64,000 nucleotides of DNA from the NCBI GenBank assembly GCA_020631975.1, contig JACKGO010000003.1, positions 170,973 through 234,972 on the forward strand, in the 5' to 3' direction. Shown here in pieces: positions 8,941-60,891 of the stretch. This DNA is from Candidatus Nomurabacteria bacterium (GTDB lineage: Bacteria > Patescibacteriota > Saccharimonadia > Saccharimonadales > CAIOMD01). Numbering within the stretch: the first letter of the stretch is position 1; each line of letters begins with the position of its first letter. The notes beneath the pieces are model-generated. The model had not been told where the DNA came from, did not search any database, and saw only the letters and a list, made by a program, of their open reading frames with translations. Both the position numbers and the translations under genes were made by a program.

Positions 8941-9533
8941 TGAACCCAAAGAAAATGTATTACCTACTTGTAGCAGCACTTGTTGTGACGTTGCTCGCAA
9001 TTGGTGGCGTGCTATATCTTGGTAGAGGTGTAATGCTTGCTGCATCAGAAAAAGTCATAGATGCTAAATTAAATATCATTAAAGCAGAAAAAACAGAAGA
9101 AACGTATCTTAAAAATAAACAGATATACCTAGCTAATTCAGCTACAGCAGAGAAATTAAACTACCTTGTACCTACAGGTAAAGAGCAAGCTGCAGCTGTA
9201 GAAACTATTTATAGTTTCGCGAACAATGCAAATCTTACGATTACATCTGTTGTTTTTCCAGGCTCTAGCCTAGACCCTACGGTAAAGCAAAAAACTAAAG
9301 TAGACATTTCTCAGGCAACGCCCGTAAAAGACTTAAAAGGGGTATATGAAATTCCTATAGAAGTAAGTATCAGCGGCGGGGGTAAGAACTCTATCTCGAC
9401 AAATCAAATACTCAACCTCATTGAATCAATTGAAGCTAGCCCCAGAAATATGCGAATTACTGCTATTACCTACGATTCTACTAGCGGAGAAATCCGATTA
9501 AATATATCATTATTCGTAAAGAAGCCATCATGA
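8940..9533 (+). CDS. pilO: PilO-like pilus assembly protein
   Basis: N-terminal TM followed by a coiled coil and a small alpha/beta domain; called from position after pilN. Confidence 0.6.
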   Translation: MNPKKMYYLLVAALVVTLLAIGGVLYLGRGVMLAASEKVIDAKLNIIKAEKTEETYLKNKQIYLANSATAEKLNYLVPTGKEQAAAVETIYSFANNANLTITSVVFPGSSLDPTVKQKTKVDISQATPVKDLKGVYEIPIEVSISGGGKNSISTNQILNLIESIEASPRNMRITAITYDSTSGEIRLNISLFVKKPS

Positions 9534-9846: not shown

Positions 9847-10443
9847 CTACGTATTTATGTTGATATTATTTCTATAGGAACCTGCTTGGCCAGTGGCTTG
9901 TATAAAATCGTCTTTTGCATCAAGTATAATTCTCGCAACCCTATTAGGATGGGGGCATAAAGGAAAAATAAAATTAGCTTGTTCTCCGGCTGTCTCAATT
10001 TTGAGTGTGCCAAAATTAAACATGGTAGAAAATACTCCGCGCTGTTCGCTCGTCACATCTTCTATATTGGCAAGAGAGATATGTGAAACTTTACGTTCGT
10101 ATATACTTTTTTGAAGTATTTGTATAACGTTCTTGTTTGTCACAGTAAGGCCAGACTGGTTGTACACATATGTTATAGCGATGAGTACGACGACTAGTAC
10201 AAAACCACATATAAACGCAAGTACAGTCCAAGCAGAGTATATGCTGTTAGTACTAGCCATAGTCTTAGGAAGGACTATGCTTATTAAGCTTAGAGCAAAT
10301 ACAAATGCAATAAACGATGCTGCGTAGATGACCATCAAACCAAATGGATGTTGTTTTACCGCACACAATAAACGAGCATCTCTGTCGGTGACTTCGATGG
10401 TTTTATAGTAAGCCGATTCTTTATAGCTATTTCTAAATAGCAT
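9847..10443 (-). CDS. Membrane protein with bacterial PH (bPH_2/YdbT-like) domain
   Basis: Two or three TM helices followed by ...FGTLKIETAGE...IFPLCPHP, typical of bPH_2. Confidence 0.65.
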   Translation of the reverse strand: MLFRNSYKESAYYKTIEVTDRDARLLCAVKQHPFGLMVIYAASFIAFVFALSLISIVLPKTMASTNSIYSAWTVLAFICGFVLVVVLIAITYVYNQSGLTVTNKNVIQILQKSIYERKVSHISLANIEDVTSEQRGVFSTMFNFGTLKIETAGEQANFIFPLCPHPNRVARIILDAKDDFIQATGQAGSYRNNININT

Positions 10444-10457
10444 GGTTGTATTATAGT

Positions 10458-11489
10458 CTATACGAACGAAGTTTGGCTATTTTCTGATTTTGGTGGCACT
10501 TTATTAAGATGTTTATAAGCTTTTTGTGTAACTTTTCTGCCGCGAGGCGTTCGTTCTAGCATACCTATCTGCAGTAAGTAGGGTTCGTAAAAGTCTTCTA
10601 TAGTCGTGCGCTCATCTGCAAGTAAAGCTGCCAATGTGTCTACGCCAACAGGGCCCCCTTGATGATTGTCTATAATAGTTGCGAGCAACATTCTATCTGA
10701 CTGATCAAGCCCGAGTTCATCTATTTCTAATAATAGTAAGCCTTGTTCTGCATTCTGCAAATCTACAATACCATCACCATTCACATCAGCGTAATCTCGT
10801 ACTCGCTTGAGCAATCTGTTAGCAATACGTGGCGTTAAGCGTGATCTGCGTGCTATGTGAGCAGCAGCGTCTTTTGTTACTTGTGTGTCTAAAATACTCG
10901 AAGATCGTTGAATAATACGCGCAATTTCCTCTGGTGTATAAAAATCAAGCCTATGTACGTGGCCAAACCGATCCCTTAGTGGTGCAGCCAATGCGCCTGT
11001 TCTTGTAGTTGCGCCAATGATACTAAACTTAGGTAAATCAAGCCGGAGGCTACGGGCTGATGGCCCCTTTCCGAGCATGATATCTAGCTTAAAATCTTCC
11101 ATGGCGCTGTAGAGCACTTCTTCTACTGTTCTATTGAGCCGATGTATTTCGTCAATGAACAATATATCACCGTCTTGTAAATTAGTAAGTAGACTTGCCA
11201 AATCACCAGCCCGCTCAATAGCCGGACCACTAGTAATACGGATTTGCGCACCCATTTCGTTAGCAATGACACTTGCCATTGTTGTTTTACCTAGCCCGGG
11301 TGGGCCAAACAGTAGTACATGATCAATTGGCTCATTACGTTTTTTGGCTGCTGTAATTGCTAATTGCAAATTTTGCTTTAAACGTTCTTGACCAATGTAA
11401 CTAGCAAAGTCTTTGGGGCGTAATGTTAGTTCAAGTTGCTCTTCTACTATATTGTCATCTTGGGTAGTATTAACTATTCTCTCAATCAT
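10458..11489 (-). CDS. ruvB: Holliday junction branch migration helicase RuvB
   Basis: Walker [16 protein letters not shown], full-length collinear RuvB pattern. Confidence 0.96.
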
Positions 11490-15466: not shown

Positions 15467-15543
15467 TGGAGGGACCAGTGGGGCTCGAACCCACGACACC
15501 CTGCTTAAAAGGCAGGTGCTCTAACCAGCTGAGCTATGGTCCC
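15467..15543 (-). tRNA. tRNA-Lys (anticodon UUU), CCA encoded
   Basis: Manual cloverleaf: GGGACCA/TGGTCCC acceptor, anticodon arm CCTGC-CTTTTAA-GCAGG, T arm GTGGG-TTCGAGC-CCCAC. Confidence 0.93.
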
Positions 15544-30649: not shown

Positions 30650-31576
30650 TTATACCGTTTTTTCATCTGTTTGACTACGTGAAATAAATCTGGCAGAACG
30701 TTTAGTTAATTGAATATCAACACCAGACACCTGAATCACTTTTCCAGGCAACATCGTTTTGATAGCTACGGTTACTTTTTCAATAGTAGGAGTATCAACG
30801 TTTGCCGCGTTAGCTCTTCGTAGCAACATATGCACTACTTCTGTGGAGATATCGTGGGGCAATTTGCAAAACCAGCTTCTATTTAACACCAGTGTATCTT
30901 TATGTAGCCCGCGGGTAATAAGTAGCCGGAGCTCTTTGTCAATTTTTGTGTTTAATAATTGCGTGTTTTGAATTATAGCCAGTGCCTGAGCGCGTTGCTG
31001 GGTATTCATCTTGGCAACGACAGTATGCCTAATGTTATTTCTGGCGTATGCTGTATCAATATTTGTACTGTCTTCACGCCACTGCAAATTATGAGCTTTG
31101 GCGTAATTGTAGATATCACGCTTAGGAACATAAAGTATTGGCCGAATAATCGTATCGGTACTTTGCAACGAAGCAATACCTTTGCGTTTTGTGCCTCGCA
31201 TAATGTTAAGAAACATTGTTTCAATCATATCGTCCTGGTGATGAGCAGTAATAATTGCAGCAGCTTGATGTTTTTTTTGCATTCTATATAAGAATTCATA
31301 ACGTTTTTGGCGGGCCAAATCCTCGCTGGTATCATTGCCTAAAGACAACTGCGTTGTTTCGTATGTATAGCCACTATTGTTTGCTAGCTCTTCAACAAAC
31401 ATAGCATCTATGCCAGAGTCTTCTCGTATACCGTGGTCTACATGAGCAATCACAAGCGTTATATTATGTTGTTTTTTTAATAAATCTAACAGTACAACTG
31501 AATCAACACCACCTGAAACAGCTAATATATACGTGCCGTCGCTAATCTTACTATATGATAATTTGTTCAACTTCAC
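30650..31576 (-). CDS. tilS: tRNA(Ile)-lysidine synthase TilS
   Basis: PP-loop SGGVDS, 308 aa, immediately upstream of ftsH as in many bacteria. Confidence 0.9.
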   Translation of the reverse strand: MKLNKLSYSKISDGTYILAVSGGVDSVVLLDLLKKQHNITLVIAHVDHGIREDSGIDAMFVEELANNSGYTYETTQLSLGNDTSEDLARQKRYEFLYRMQKKHQAAAIITAHHQDDMIETMFLNIMRGTKRKGIASLQSTDTIIRPILYVPKRDIYNYAKAHNLQWREDSTNIDTAYARNNIRHTVVAKMNTQQRAQALAIIQNTQLLNTKIDKELRLLITRGLHKDTLVLNRSWFCKLPHDISTEVVHMLLRRANAANVDTPTIEKVTVAIKTMLPGKVIQVSGVDIQLTKRSARFISRSQTDEKTV

Positions 31577-33994: not shown

Positions 33995-34071
33995 TGGTAG
34001 CAGGGACGAGATTTGAACTCGTGACCCCAGGCTTATGAGTCCTGTGCTCTAACCAACTGAGCTACCCTGCC
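33995..34071 (-). tRNA. tRNA-Met-like (anticodon CAU, elongator-type), CCA encoded
   Basis: GGCAGGGTAGCTCAGTTGGTTAGAGCACAGGACTCATAAGCCTGGGGTCACGAGTTCAAATCTCGTCCCTGCTACCA resembles E. coli elongator tRNA-Met. Has a G1-U72 pair and an A31-G39 mismatch. Confidence 0.85.
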
Positions 34072-38667: not shown

Positions 38668-38817
38668 TGGTGGGGGTGACAGGATTTGAACCCGAAGACT
38701 GCCAGTGGCAGTGTGAGTTCACGCTCATTGACGCTTGATTTCCGCGTCGCTAATTGTTTGCTTATAATGCCGCCAACTAGCACACGTGTTGAGGCTGGAA
38801 CAGCCGAGTGACCAATC
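38668..38817 (-). repeat. Pseudo-tRNA unit: Ile2-like tRNA positions ~40-49 (GATTGGTCAC), a 115-nt insert, then an exact copy of the last 25 nt (GGTTCAAATCCTGTCACCCCCACCA)
   Basis: 38668-38692 is identical to 38854-38878, and 38808-38817 is identical to 38880-38889. The insert contains hairpins GGCTG-TTC-CAGCC, GACGC-N9-GCGTC and CTGCC-ACT-GGCAG. Confidence 0.8.
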
Positions 38818-38818
38818 T

Positions 38819-38847
38819 AAAAATAAAAATACTCCCCACTATGGGAG
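38819..38847 (-). terminator. Terminator-like hairpin after the Ile2-like tRNA
   Basis: Minus strand reads CTCCC-ATAGTG-GGGAG followed by TATTTTTATTTTT. Confidence 0.6.
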
Positions 38848-38853
38848 CACTTT

Positions 38854-38929
38854 TGGTGGGGGTGACAGGATTTGAACCTGTGACCAATCGGTTATGAGCC
38901 GACTGCTCTAACCACTGAGCTACACCCCC
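38854..38929 (-). tRNA. tRNA with CAU anticodon, Ile2 (lysidine)-like; Met not excluded
   Basis: GGGGGTGTAGCTCAGTGGTTAGAGCAGTCGGCTCATAACCGATTGGTCACAGGTTCAAATCCTGTCACCCCCACCA. D-loop and variable loop resemble E. coli ileX; tilS is present in the window. Confidence 0.85.
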
Positions 38930-39071: not shown

Positions 39072-39512
39072 ATGAAGCAAAAAGTACAAACAATTATACA
39101 AAAACTCAGCGCGATAGACGCCCGAACATTAGGTTTGCTGGCAGTGCTCTTAGTAGCCGTATCTGTTACATATAGTAGTGCTAAGATTATCCACAAAAAC
39201 TACCAGCTAGAGCAACAAATCACCATTTTGCAACAAAAAAATGCCTTGCAAGAACAAATTAATAGCAACCAAAAACTAAAAAATGAGTATTACAAAACAG
39301 ATACGTACCTAGAACTAGCTGCACGTAAGTTTTTTAACAAAGCTGCTGCGGGCGAAATTCTTGTACTTGTACCAGAAGATGTTGCGATGTCTTATACTAT
39401 TCCGCCCCAAGCAGATAATGCAGCAAAATCTAATACAACACCGTCGTTTCTTACCAATTGGCGTATGTGGCTAGATTTTTTGAGTGGCAAGCCAATAGAC
39501 AAAGAATCTTGA
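39072..39512 (+). CDS. Septum formation initiator (FtsB/DivIC-like) protein
   Basis: N-terminal TM, Leu/Gln-rich coiled coil (YQLEQQITILQQKNALQEQI), then ...YLELAARKFFNKAAAGEILV. Confidence 0.6.
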   Translation: MKQKVQTIIQKLSAIDARTLGLLAVLLVAVSVTYSSAKIIHKNYQLEQQITILQQKNALQEQINSNQKLKNEYYKTDTYLELAARKFFNKAAAGEILVLVPEDVAMSYTIPPQADNAAKSNTTPSFLTNWRMWLDFLSGKPIDKES

Positions 39513-39561
39513 CACATTGCAGTTAAAGCCTTAAAATACGTTATCGTGCCTACATACTATT

Positions 39562-39697
39562 GCAGGTTCGAGCAGTGGCAGCATCGCGAAGGCTCATAAT
39601 CGCGATCAGCGTAAGCGGCGAATATATGATAAGCCAGAGAAAATCTACCATTTACAATTAACTATTTTCACGGAGCGAAGCTATATAACCACAAGGT
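39562..39697 (+). repeat. Scrambled tRNA-fMet-derived mosaic upstream of the intact gene
   Basis: Exact blocks of the tRNA in non-native order: GCAGGTTCGAG (T arm), GAGCAGTGGCAGC (D arm), GGCTCATAA (anticodon loop), ATAACCACAAGGT (39685-39697). Confidence 0.75.
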
Positions 39698-39727
39698 TAT
39701 CCCCTTCACTTCTTAACCACCCTATTT

Positions 39728-39802
39728 TGCGGGGTAGAGCAGTGGCAGCTCGTGTGGCTCATAACCACAAGGTCGCAGGTTCGAGTCCTGCCCCCGCGAC
39801 CA
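39728..39802 (+). tRNA. Initiator-like tRNA-Met (CAU), CCA encoded
   Basis: TGCGGGGTAGAGCAGTGGCAGCTCGTGTGGCTCATAACCACAAGGTCGCAGGTTCGAGTCCTGCCCCCGCGACCA is close to E. coli tRNA-fMet. Weak U1-G72 end pair. Confidence 0.85.
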
Positions 39803-39810
39803 AGAAAAAT

Positions 39811-39836
39811 CACTCACCTTGTGTGGGTGTTTTTTC
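39811..39836 (+). terminator. Terminator after the initiator-like tRNA
   Basis: CACTCAC-CTTGT-GTGGGTG followed by TTTTTT. Confidence 0.75.
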
Positions 39837-39973
39837 TTGTACGGAGTGCAGGACGAGATCCTTTCGGCAATAGCCGAACTGGTTCAGATAATTCAAGCGA
39901 TAAGCGCAGAATTATATGATGAAACCGAATTTATCATTCCAGTATTTAAGATAAATCCGGCTAGAAGCTATAT

Positions 39974-39990
39974 TCCTGCCCCCGCGACCA
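39974..39990 (+). repeat. Exact copy 2 of the tRNA-fMet 3' end (TCCTGCCCCCGCGACCA)
   Basis: 17/17 identity with 39786-39802, followed by the same AGAAAAA; preceded by GAAGCTATAT as in the upstream mosaic. Confidence 0.9.
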
Positions 39991-39998
39991 AGAAAAAA

Positions 39999-40026
39999 TC
40001 TTTAGCATTTGCTAGGGATTTTTTCT
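39999..40026 (+). terminator. Terminator-like hairpin after copy 2
   Basis: TCTTTAGCA-TT-TGCTAGGGA followed by TTTTTTCTT. Confidence 0.65.
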
Positions 40027-40160
40027 TTATCTTGGGATAAGACTCGGTTCTGCGACTCGGCAAGCTTACTTGACGATAGTCGCAGGTTGGAAGACAAAGC
40101 TTGCGCGCAGGTGCTTGCACCGAGCACAAGCTGCAGGCGCATCGAGCCTTAGCAAGATAT

Positions 40161-40177
40161 TCCTGCCCCCGCGACCA
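40161..40177 (+). repeat. Exact copy 3 of the tRNA-fMet 3' end
   Basis: 17/17 identity. A further tRNA block GTCGCAGGTT lies at 40079-40088, 72 nt upstream. Confidence 0.9.
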
Positions 40178-40219
40178 TGTAAAAGAGTTAGGTACGAGTT
40201 AAAAGGTTTAGATAATTTA

Positions 40220-40765
40220 CTACGATATTTCTAGTACTAGATTTTGAAATTTTAGTGTGTCGCTCGTATATGGCTCGCCTACGTTAACAAATCCTATTTG
40301 TCTGAGTAATCTACTACTAGCTTCGTTTGTGATTAGATGTCTTGAATATATGACCTTACTGCCAAGCCCTTGAAGATACTCAATAACGGCACTAACACTA
40401 GCAGAACCAATACCTTTACCCCGCATAGCTGGGTCACCAACCATAATATGCACTGATGGACCAGGTAGGTAATGTGAGTCTTCTAAGTCAACCCAAATAG
40501 AACCAACTACTGTGCCGTTATATTCAATCATCCAGTTCAGCTGGTCTGTACGTTCTAGAAAGTTTCTGACCCTTTCTGATTCTGTTTCTACTGTTGTTGG
40601 GAGTATGTTATCTATAACGTCCTTTGTGTTCCCCATAGATTGCATAGTGACATGTCCTAGTTCACCATTAAGCCATTGCACGCCAAGTTTGGTGTCACGC
40701 TGTACGTCTGGAACTATTAGTGTTATAAGGGAATCAGTAGTTTTAAGCTCGGGTGCCTTCATCAC
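40220..40765 (-). CDS. GNAT family N-acetyltransferase
   Basis: Acetyl-CoA motif MRGKGIGSASVSAVIEY; 181 aa. Confidence 0.85.
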   Translation of the reverse strand: MMKAPELKTTDSLITLIVPDVQRDTKLGVQWLNGELGHVTMQSMGNTKDVIDNILPTTVETESERVRNFLERTDQLNWMIEYNGTVVGSIWVDLEDSHYLPGPSVHIMVGDPAMRGKGIGSASVSAVIEYLQGLGSKVIYSRHLITNEASSRLLRQIGFVNVGEPYTSDTLKFQNLVLEIS

Positions 40766-60709: not shown

Positions 60710-60891
60710 ATATAGTCAGTCCACCAATGACCTAGTATCCTGCTCGGGATATATGTTGGTCGTAGTCTTAGTAATGTATCTGACTTATTGCGTATGTAGC
60801 AATTTACAGTTGCGGCACAGTCCATGAATCACACATGGTTCCATTACAAAAAGCACGAAGTATATTGTTAATAACTTTATTATAGCAAATG

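Follow-up and report, generated by a model that had tools for sequence, protein, structure and literature searches.

Behind the intact initiator-type tRNA gene of the window (the whole 64-kb stretch of DNA that was analysed) we identified two units without genes, U1 and U2, of 188 and 187 nt, both of which start with a terminator and finish with an exact 17-nt copy of the tRNA 3' end (Table 1). Tentatively, and with a confidence that comes close to even without reaching it, we propose that small cassettes without an integrase accumulated here at a tRNA-anchored, integron-like accretion site and were subsequently subject to loss through the repeats. What we observe is the anatomy of the units and their families, how these are conserved and covary, the fixed order, the polymorphism among strains and the end copies that bracket genes in relatives; the recombination reaction, the enzyme behind it and the part played by the hairpins are inferred.

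Mobile DNA is well known to insert at tRNA genes. In Saccharibacteria and other bacteria with ultra-small genomes, recognisable mobile elements are scarce, but the gene content of strains varies, and the tRNA loci described here suggest a simple route to such variation, namely the stacking behind tRNA genes of single-gene and empty cassettes that hold no recombinase and have tRNA-end copies and conserved hairpin units as their borders.

Anatomy of the tRNA loci in the window

ARAGORN and Rfam both call a tRNA(CAU), and its A11:U24 pair and weak 1:72 pair, read from the sequence, make it initiator-like, in agreement with the initial annotation of this DNA; the gene sequence shows no differences among all the relatives examined. 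Its neighbours are genes for DivIC, an RRM protein, GNAT and FMN reductase. The sigma-70-like promoter resembles the tRNA promoter of the relatives, yet it lies ~190 nt 5' of the tRNA gene here, whereas TTGACA/TAAAAT is at most ~65 nt from the tRNA in the relatives.

The 17-mer TCCTGCCCCCGCGACCA occurs exactly three times in the 64 kb (at 39786, 39974 and 40161), always on the same strand and with spacings of 188 and 187 nt, and none of 100 shuffles gave any match, which bears out the earlier claim of three exact 3'-end copies. AGAAAAA, a hairpin and TTTTTTCTT come directly after both copy 1 and copy 2, and GTCGCAGGTT was found at 40079-40088, 72 nt before copy 3, both as first annotated.

Table 1. 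Features of the initiator tRNA locus and of the neighbouring tRNA-Met unit, in window positions.
Feature	Positions	Strand	Evidence
Unit behind the tRNA-Met(CAU) gene (38854-38929), 186 nt	38668-38853	-	
Sigma-70-like promoter TTGACA-17-TAAAAT	39509-39537	+	11/12 positions match
Diverged collinear copy of tRNA 5' half (positions 1-37, to CTCATAA)	39560-39599	+	alignment, repeat D2
Degenerate type-1 module X in anticodon loop of the (probably) displaced tRNA copy	39611-39685	+	nhmmer E = 0.02-0.03
Exact copy of tRNA positions 34-46, ATAACCACAAGGT	39685-39697	+	repeat D7
Initiator-type tRNA(CAU) gene, CCA encoded, intact	39728-39802	+	ARAGORN and Rfam tRNA, 64.4 bits
Intrinsic terminator opening U1: AGAAAAA, hairpin, TTTTTTCTTG	39803-39839	+	inverted repeat I5
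Degenerate reverse-complement copy of tRNA T-arm and acceptor 3' part	39842-39862	+	alignment
Type-1a module	39881-39972	+	nhmmer E = 5e-22
Second exact tRNA 3'-end copy (T-loop position 60 to CCA), end of U1	39974-39990	+	
Terminator-like hairpin opening U2	39991-40027	+	inverted repeat I1
Reverse-complement copy of tRNA T-arm region, GGGATAAGACTCGGTTCTGCGAC	40034-40056	+	p ~0.02
Direct copy of tRNA positions 45-57, GTCGCAGGTTgGA	40079-40091	+	sequence match, alignment
U2-type hairpin-rich insert between both halves of tRNA 3'-half copy	40092-40160	+	profile E = 8e-44
Third exact tRNA 3'-end copy, end of U2	40161-40177	+	
Type-1b relic: beginning of a fourth unit, truncated by GNAT gene	40185-40217	+	aligns to L032 unit, p ~0.003

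Inside U1, the reverse-complement copy and the tRNA end form a long imperfect palindrome around the terminator, and such a reverse-complement tRNA-like copy is present at a constant offset in every unit at every locus. The type-1a module contains two similar hairpins (39884-39894 with 39909-39919, and 39925-39935 with 39950-39960), each with an 11-bp stem, one conserved mismatch and a 14-nt loop. In U2, the reverse-complement block is ~90% conserved in another species, L011, where the insert also has an orthologue (E = 6e-34), and tRNA positions 45-57 are copied directly as the left part of a second tRNA 3' half, one that is split in its T-loop. Only 3' parts of the tRNA recur downstream of the gene, with no full-length or decayed whole-gene copies. 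The collinear whole-gene copies of a tandem tRNA gene duplication are thus absent, and the relatives likewise carry units and not plain tandem tRNA copies. A tRNA-like fold of the units was also considered and rejected, as the 5' strand and the tail pair imperfectly.

Upstream of the gene, the initial annotation had described exact tRNA blocks in scrambled order. The blocks exist (GCAGGTTCGAG at 39562, GAGCAGTGGCAGC at 39570, GGCTCATAA at 39591 and ATAACCACAAGGT at 39685), but they are not scrambled: most belong to one collinear, diverged 5' half, in which 32 of the 37 aligned bases are identical to tRNA positions 1-37 (score 44, reached by none of 200 shuffles), and which is probably a displaced older 5' part of the tRNA gene. 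The homology proposed between 39611-39687 and 39901-39973 gains tentative support, in that the family profile matches module X, which also has the terminal GAAGCTATAT in common with type-1 (repeat D13). One family is joined to the tRNA at two junctions, as had been suggested, with the type-1 module of U1 at the T-loop and the degenerate copy at the anticodon loop.

The arrangement at the neighbouring tRNA-Met(CAU) gene parallels that of the initiator locus. A terminator (38825-38854) and GATTGGTCAC, corresponding to tRNA positions 41-50 (38808-38817), are followed by an insert of ~115 nt and then by an exact 25-nt copy of the tRNA 3' end (38668-38692), 186 nt downstream. Orthologues of this unit are found in L028, L040 and L043. 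No unit lies behind tRNA-Lys(UUU) (15467-15543) or tRNA(CAU) (33995-34071), which refutes the idea that units are a rule for all tRNAs with the GGTTCGAG T-loop.

Families, order and strain variation

Comparison with related Saccharibacteria species revealed at least four conserved unit families, of which each species holds a subset, and the order type-0 < type-1a < U2 < type-1b is found across species with no violation. The repeated recombination at the tRNA proposed in the initial annotation stands in so far as repeated events are recorded, but the units fall into these ordered families and are not the debris of one element. The tRNA-end fragments are intact in proximal positions (21/21 and 17/17) and more decayed distally, where 15/17, ~11/17 or nothing remains. 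With the tRNA-Lys and L043 loci included, unit lengths span 171-201 nt, and a constant length was accordingly rejected as a hard constraint.

Near-identical strains carry one to three units, that is, two to four copies of the 17-mer; the contigs derive from activated-sludge and wastewater samples. Strains with flanks more than 98.7% identical have U2' alone, U1 and U2, U1 and U2', or U0, U1 and U2, with the boundaries of these differences exactly at the repeat. U1 is missing from L001, U0 is missing from most strains, and L028-L030 are without any unit, L028 being a clear case of loss through the TTTTTCTTGT repeat. As far as the sequences go, deletion between repeats suffices to account for all that differs from strain to strain or from species to species, and no gain event is documented among the differences compared, so that the strain differences are no proof of ongoing integration. 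In L001, the last 17-mer and the degenerate copy CCTGGGCGACCA enclose a 2.17-kb block with genes for a methyltransferase and a dienelactone-hydrolase-family (DLH) hydrolase and, between these in the list of its contents, a 43-aa ORF.

In relatives, tRNA-Lys(CTT) is also followed by bodies of types 1 and 0, next to FolD-like and cargo genes, and at these loci tRNA-Lys is the source of all three tRNA-like parts of the unit: terminal copy, left piece and inverted copy. The tRNA-Lys island of L049 has nine TGGCCCTCCA copies on the same strand within 8.3 kb and none on the opposite strand, and these mark off single-gene cassettes; in L053 and L047 one LigT-like gene lies between two type-0 units. 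A search of 241 million metagenome records with the type-1 pattern returned only tRNA-fMet loci, tRNA-Lys loci and one relic.

The bodies of the units are strongly conserved. That of U1 shows 88.7% identity between species in which the flanking genes reach 63-75% and third codon positions ~50-52%, a ~60-nt block of U2 is ~90% identical to that of a species with merely 52% DivIC protein identity, and the type-1 body at tRNA-fMet (39881-39972) is 86.8% identical to that at the tRNA-Lys locus. As judged from these comparisons, unit bodies evolve far more slowly than neutral sequence. In addition, double changes occur in 6 of the 11 pairs of the H1 hairpin, with a covariation score of 0.221 against 0.095 for shuffled alignments (0/500 reach it), and both type-1 hairpins retain a conserved unpaired position. 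Because the bodies evolve slowly and have covarying hairpins, a plain reading of the units as scars of integrations is incomplete.

Possible origins of the units

In the accretion-site proposal, the 3' part of the tRNA, from T-loop to CCA, would be the anchor. An incoming module would supply its own copy of the tRNA 3' end together with a terminator, leaving the tRNA gene intact, and the prior 3' end would be displaced downstream, giving a one-directional array with the oldest unit most distal. The modules of the window (~170 nt) would represent gene-less, hairpin-rich conserved families, whose folded hairpins are probably the recombination sites of a recombinase that would work in trans and be encoded elsewhere. 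Short direct repeats may afterwards have led to the loss of units in some strains and species, and the terminator hairpins may have promoted templated (quasi-palindrome) mutation, producing the inverted tRNA-like copies. The left tRNA piece and the inverted copy in each unit are unexpected under a simple attP x attB exchange, and, since the bodies are strongly conserved, the cassette model must add the assumption that they serve as a recombination site or have another function. No recombinase domain was found in the units, in the 30 window ORFs scanned against Pfam, in the L001 island or in a 12-kb tRNA-Lys island, which upholds the earlier remark that no integrase is present among the ORFs tested, and no transposase was seen alongside the unit families. 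If the reaction and its enzyme were found, the locus would rank as a compact counterpart of the integron, anchored on a tRNA gene.

The main rival, which we consider doubtful, regards the units as small structured RNAs or structured DNA sites under selection, with a tail that is functional and not a scar. Each would consist of a conserved hairpin scaffold and a 17-22-nt tail that repeats the 3' end of the neighbouring tRNA, closed by a terminator; its role could be that of a guide-like RNA, or it could imitate the tRNA 3' end as a mimic or decoy. The identities of the U1, U2 and type-1 bodies across loci and species and the compensatory changes in the hairpins argue for such a role, as does the folding of type-0 units, in which the tRNA strand is favoured over the opposite strand by 8-26 kcal/mol (the shuffle control of the unit-folding analysis being mononucleotide). 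The promoter-like TTCAAG-17-TATGAT inside type-1, directed at the tail and terminator, points the same way, but it can be read equally well as an invariant hairpin (helix 1). The layout of scaffold plus tail is like that of 3'-guide RNAs, a resemblance only: no adjoining effector gene and no Rfam match for a TnpB/IscB/Cas12-type guide RNA was found, and no partner protein gene consistently adjoins the units. A known RNA family was rejected, as Rfam gives only the tRNA and the units have no match even at E <= 10. The units are also dispensable, given their absence from the strains listed above, and tails decay while bodies are kept (14/17 in L041, 15/17 in L032, and the B unit of L011). Were the units RNAs, they would form a new family with a variable tail tracking the neighbouring tRNA. 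A more novel reading appears unlikely, namely that the units, instead of being scars, form a new class found only in Saccharibacteria, either of genes for small structured RNAs or of structured recombination sites, with a conserved hairpin scaffold and a 17-22-nt tRNA-end tail. They would then belong either to a system of guide or mimic RNAs directed at tRNA genes or tRNA 3' ends, or to a tRNA-anchored gene-cassette system of ultra-small-genome bacteria that has not been described before, in which they would take the place of attC.

It is quite improbable, in our view, that the units are remnants of integrase-bearing islands or prophages that entered the tRNA gene and were mostly deleted down to their att-flanking arms. 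A displaced 3' fragment behind an intact tRNA gene is the textbook signature of such islands in the Islander abstract and in passages of the tycheposon preprint, and the 17-mer occurs in 11 viral contigs, in tRNA genes or in attP-like partial tRNAs of unrelated organisms, including partial tRNA-fMet copies that end in it. The unit patterns themselves, however, have no viral match or only chance matches in high-GC phages, and a phage or viral parent was rejected. One relative, L056, does have a mobile element of ~7.6 kb at the 3' end of its tRNA-Met gene, but this sole real integrated element seen uses a large serine recombinase, duplicates only 6 nt (TTGGTG) and has no sequence in common with the units, and an origin through such a recombinase was rejected. 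Random deletion would not repeatedly yield units of 185-189 nt, nor would it be expected to leave equal body families at two tRNAs in several species, and neutral remnants would not hold 87-89% identity with third codon positions saturated. Within a limited search space (IMG/VR, JGI metagenomes and fetched loci), no autonomous parent with the shared att site and arms was found, and among the loci examined and those of the metagenome scan there was no instance of unit halves separated by element genes.

Duplication in place of the tRNA 3' region and terminator, in tandem or inverted, by slippage or template switching and followed by divergence, would involve no mobile DNA. We regard this as highly improbable, although each terminator lies between the tRNA 3' part and its degenerate reverse complement and there are marks of templated quasi-palindrome mutation: the mutated fragment CCACACAACCA of L041 is perfectly complementary to TGGTTGTGTGG past the terminator, and the difference between U2 and U2' creates a perfect small palindrome. 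Against it, U0, U1 and U2 have bodies that are related neither to each other nor to the tRNA, gene-bearing blocks lie between copies, and the tRNA-Lys loci combine the same bodies with tRNA-Lys-derived ends. Finally, a mis-assembled tandem repeat can be dismissed and the observation taken as real, since, even though contigs L010 and L027 end inside the array and scaffold L006 has an N run there, the three-copy array is identical in more than six independent ENA, NCBI and JGI assemblies (L002-L005, L009 and L051 among them), variants are consistent across samples, and the repeats of 17-24 nt are far below assembly k-mers.

Relation to known systems

The array resembles tRNA and tmRNA islands and prophages (tyrosine-integrase att sites; Islander; the T-loop attB of mycobacteriophage Ms6) in having an intact tRNA with 3' copies that start in the T-loop, a junction in the anticodon loop and variable cargo adjoining the array. 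According to the Islander abstract and passages of the tycheposon preprint, serial integration into tRNA genes drives older elements and partial tRNAs outward. By the features used in Islander, an intact tRNA with displaced 3' fragments is present (two exact 17-nt copies and one exact 25-nt copy), but the 187-188 nt segments hold no gene and thus no integrase, and a kb-sized foreign segment is found only in L001 and not in the window. The array also differs from such islands in its gene-less segments of 185-198 nt between copies, its conserved body families with covarying hairpins, and the left tRNA piece and inverted copy of each unit. Tycheposon islands of Prochlorococcus and tandem tRNA islands have serial integration, scattered partial tRNAs and strain-variable content in common with the array, but tycheposons are kb-sized, with their own tyrosine recombinase and replication genes, whereas the modules here are single-gene or gene-less and have no recombinase.

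With integron arrays (attI and attC), the array shares a single direction from a fixed primary site and single-gene and empty cassettes; its boundaries, covarying imperfect palindromes of ~100-190 nt with conserved structure and retained unpaired bases, may be a further likeness. Passages of PMC2727003 define attC sites by structure, and the conserved unpaired position of the type-1 hairpins is reminiscent of them. Palindromes are found at every terminator, together with the covarying hairpins and the conserved mismatch, but the sequence is also highly conserved, the core is the tRNA 3' end and not GTTRRRY, attC core motifs are absent, so that the units are not attC by sequence, and there is no adjacent intI.

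Like CIMEs and MITE/PATE elements, the units are small, non-coding, hairpin-rich or att-flanked and without an enzyme of their own. As in CIMEs, att repeats occur without an integrase, but no cognate autonomous element was found in the limited search space of IMG/VR, metagenome scans and fetched loci, copy number is very low and the units are confined to tRNA 3' flanks. The dispersed copies with a transposase that characterise MITE/PATE elements (IS200/IS605 or DDE) were not seen in the 241 million metagenome records. Type-1 has two similar hairpins and TTCAAG...CTTGAA ends, without a clean target-site duplication or long terminal inverted repeats. Self-splicing tRNA introns of the same phylum also place extra sequence in tRNA loops, but these are at least 200 nt long and lie in the anticodon loop of otherwise complete genes. 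A group I intron was rejected because the inserts here (70-115 nt) are too short and the host tRNA copies, split mostly in the T-loop, are partial; Intron_gpI gave no match at E <= 10, nor in a separate search at E <= 1.

A coding remnant was considered for frame +2 of U1, which is protein-like, and was rejected because of a frameshift in L023 and a stop in L032; its translation has no Pfam match and, among 5.8 billion proteins, only a self-match. Annotation pipelines should expect tRNA fragments of this kind and avoid labelling them as pseudogenes or small ORFs; one unit has already been deposited as a 'hypothetical protein'.

Units flanking the initiator tRNA gene

The tRNA(CAU) gene of the window carries an A11:U24 pair and a weak 1:72 pair, which mark it as a predicted initiator (tRNA-fMet). 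As the initial annotation had noted, its last 17 nt (TCCTGCCCCCGCGACCA) recur exactly downstream, giving three occurrences in the 64-kb window, at 39786 (the gene's own), 39974 and 40161, and 0 of 100 shuffles contained any match. Equally borne out were the terminator signature (AGAAAAA, a hairpin and a T-run) directly 3' of the first two copies, and the presence of GTCGCAGGTT 72 nt upstream of the third.

Both gene-less units that follow the gene, U1 and U2, open with a terminator. Immediately past it, the 3' part of the tRNA recurs in degenerate, reverse-complemented form, at an offset that is constant in all units at all loci examined; the tRNA end, the terminator and this inverted copy thus make up one long, imperfect palindrome. 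The rest of the unit is a direct copy of the tRNA 3' half in two pieces, split in the T-loop by an insert of 70-115 nt that is specific to the unit's family; the right-hand piece extends from the T-loop to CCA. Upstream of the gene, all the tRNA blocks reported initially are present, but their supposed scrambling did not hold, since one stretch reproduces the tRNA 5' half in collinear though diverged form; 3' of it lie a degenerate module and then tRNA positions 34-46, copied exactly.

The array is adjoined by a GNAT acetyltransferase gene that truncates the last unit; this gene is missing at the corresponding position in several related species (loci L023, L028 and L041), and thus may itself be accessory cargo. 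Public databases list the non-coding U1/U2 stretch 39819-40040 (+) as a 'hypothetical protein' of 67 aa (record P0075), which is an annotation artefact.

Coordinates of tRNA genes, units and related features (window, or locus of a related strain or species)
Feature	Sequence	Position	Strand	Remarks
tRNA-fMet gene	window	39728-39802	+	ARAGORN and Rfam
Diverged tRNA 5' half	window	39560-39599		collinear; 32/37 aligned bases the same; score reached by 0/200 shuffles
Degenerate member of U1's module family	window	39611-39685		profile E ~0.02-0.03
U1	window	39803-39990		188 nt
U2	window	39991-40177		187 nt
Relic of a further unit	window	40185-40217		3' of U2; cut off by GNAT gene
GNAT gene	window	40220-40765	-
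tRNA-Met(CAU) gene	window	38854-38929	-
tRNA-Met unit	window	38668-38853	-	terminator, GATTGGTCAC (tRNA positions 41-50), ~115-nt insert, exact 25-nt 3'-end copy
tRNA-Lys(CTT) island	L053	1534-2780
tRNA-Lys(CTT) island	L047	1-1000
tRNA-Lys(CTT) island	L049	2232-10640		reverse-complemented
CCTGTCCGTCCTGTCGGCCAGACAGGCCGGGTGA insertions	L049	~10000-10030, 10575-10606		reverse-complemented
CCTGTCCGTCCTGTCGGCCAGACAGGCCGGGTGA insertion	L047	~9210-9242

Variation and conservation among strains and species

Our comparison drew on the 64-kb window together with some 345 kb of related loci, with small alignments of 4-8 sequences. Among strains with flanks more than 98.7% identical the unit sets vary, and the boundaries fall exactly at the repeat: the window and several other assemblies have U1+U2, strain locus L007 has U1+U2', L008 has U0+U1+U2, and in L001 U2' is the only unit, with a 2.17-kb block behind it that contains a methyltransferase gene, an ORF of 43 aa and a hydrolase gene of the dienelactone-hydrolase family and is terminated by a degenerate copy. 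In other species, located through DivIC homologues of 52-81% protein identity, the tRNA is identical and is followed by units drawn from four types (type-0, type-1a, U2-type and type-1b); the order of these types is constant across the species compared, and the distal terminal tRNA fragments are more decayed than those near the gene. In one species (L028-L030) units are absent but the first terminator of a unit is retained, which indicates loss by deletion between TTTTTCTTGT repeats. The array is therefore old, with chiefly vertical inheritance and differential loss; no gain event was documented among the strains and species compared.

Unit conservation is far above the neutral level, and the modules are under clear constraint. 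Between the window and L023, U1 is 88.7% identical, against 63-75% for the flanking genes and ~50-52% at third codon positions, and a ~60-nt block of U2 is still ~90% identical in L011, where DivIC has fallen to 52% protein identity and third codon positions to 46%. Two hairpins of similar form make up the type-1 module; both have a stem of 11 bp, in which a mismatch at the fourth pair is conserved, and a loop of 14 nt. In a small alignment (4-8 sequences), the second hairpin has compensatory double changes at 6 of its 11 pairs; its covariation score of 0.221 was reached by 0/500 shuffles (0.095) and compares with at most 0.089 in slid-partner controls. Covariation is also seen in one hairpin of the type-0 insert.

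Modules at other tRNA genes

The neighbouring tRNA-Met(CAU) gene is followed by a unit of the same design, its 25-nt copy ending 186 nt downstream of the gene. In L001, L006 and L007 this 3'-end copy is identical over 17 nt only and divergent beyond (TCCTATTAGTT). A PP-loop ATP_bind_3 (TilS-like) gene at 30650-31576 (-) lies close to three CAU tRNAs, including those at 33995-34071 and 38854-38929, and since it is nearby, tRNA-Ile2 is probably among the two non-initiator CAU tRNAs.

A metagenome scan with a pattern derived from the U1 body found the type-1 body also 3' of tRNA-Lys(CTT), with 86.8% identity to the tRNA-fMet copy and a terminal copy (CCCCTCCTGGCCCTCCA) that equals the tRNA-Lys end. 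Type-0 units occur there too, and in them the left and right pieces as well as the inverted copy derive from tRNA-Lys. In L053 and L047, profile searches identified one LigT-like gene between two type-0 units. The 8.3-kb L049 island has nine TGGCCCTCCA copies on the same strand and none on the opposite one, bounding single-gene cassettes that encode a peptidase S51, P-loop kinases (one zeta-toxin-like), a deaminase and a nucleotidyltransferase; cassette domains across the three islands include AAA_18/AAA_33 kinases, Pol-beta nucleotidyltransferase and LigT. No recombinase domain was found in the 10 ORFs scanned in the L049 island.

Cassette starts in these islands are also conserved (ATACGTTTATGCTTAAAAC... 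or TAGATACCTAAACAGATACC...). Just 5' of tRNA-Lys(CTT) there are two copies of GGGGCCAGCC(C/T)GGCCTCCC (L053 1466-1533; L049, reverse-complemented, 2170-2231), a hairpin built from both acceptor strands (5' and 3') of this tRNA, i.e. acceptor-stem mimics. In addition, the same ~33-nt hairpin insertion, CCTGTCCGTCCTGTCGGCCAGACAGGCCGGGTGA, splits two separate tRNA-Lys 3'-end copies.

Proposed mechanism and alternatives

The locus is best read as a putative tRNA-anchored, integron-like accretion site. We infer recombination between modules and the tRNA gene's 3' part, with the junction at the T-loop in the gene-less units and at the last ~10 nt in the gene cassettes of the tRNA-Lys islands. The incoming module would bring a replacement 3' end and terminator and displace earlier modules downstream, with a recombinase presumably supplied in trans. 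Pfam found no recombinase domain in 30 window ORFs, most of them recognisable housekeeping or accessory genes and six without a match. The conserved, covarying hairpins with fixed unpaired positions would be best explained as folded recombination sites, in parallel with integron attC sites, which are described as defined by structure (PMC2727003).

The strongest rival is that the units are functional structured RNAs or DNA sites, with a scaffold, tRNA-end tail and terminator under selection. Their conservation and covariation favour this reading, but the units are dispensable and the tail decays as the body is retained. Decayed classical islands fail to account for the recurring unit sizes, the families shared among loci and the conservation, and purely local duplication fails on the tRNA-Lys loci. 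An assembly artefact, a concern raised initially, is excluded, since the same three-copy array recurs in independent ENA, NCBI and JGI assemblies.

Other identities were also rejected. The units match no known RNA family, a group I intron of the type described in Patescibacteria tRNA genes was ruled out, and a protein-gene remnant was rejected since the protein-like frame of U1 is interrupted in relatives and lacks homologues. Viral-contig searches found no units. Nor are the units footprints of the large-serine-recombinase element found at the tRNA-Met 3' end of one relative, which duplicates 6 nt only. That ~7.6-kb element (L056 2204-9848, same species as L023) lies at the extreme 3' end of tRNA-Met. 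Its products are a large serine recombinase of 524 aa, encoded by an ORF that extends into the tRNA, an AAA_11/AAA_12 helicase of 1484 aa and a protein with a CdiA_C toxin domain; L024 shows the empty site, and the duplication is TTGGTG.

Well-established precedents are displaced 3' fragments of tRNA genes and serial integration at such genes (Islander; tycheposons). What is unusual here is that the modules are gene-less or single-gene and lack an integrase, that they evolve under clear constraint, and that they form conserved hairpin families common to more than one tRNA gene, the ends fitting the tRNA in question; also unusual is their presence in a phylum of very small genomes. No prior description of such tRNA-anchored module arrays was found in the literature searched.

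Deletion between short repeats is a secondary process that is directly visible. In L041 (3749-3812), a mutated tRNA-end copy, CCACACAACCA, is exactly complementary to TGGTTGTGTGG past the terminator, and its three changes, which are clustered, resemble a templated quasi-palindrome mutation, a process that can also account for the inverted tRNA-like copies. Elsewhere in the window, an AdoCbl (B12) riboswitch at 60725-60869 (-) scores 52.8 bits, barely above the Rfam gathering threshold of 50.
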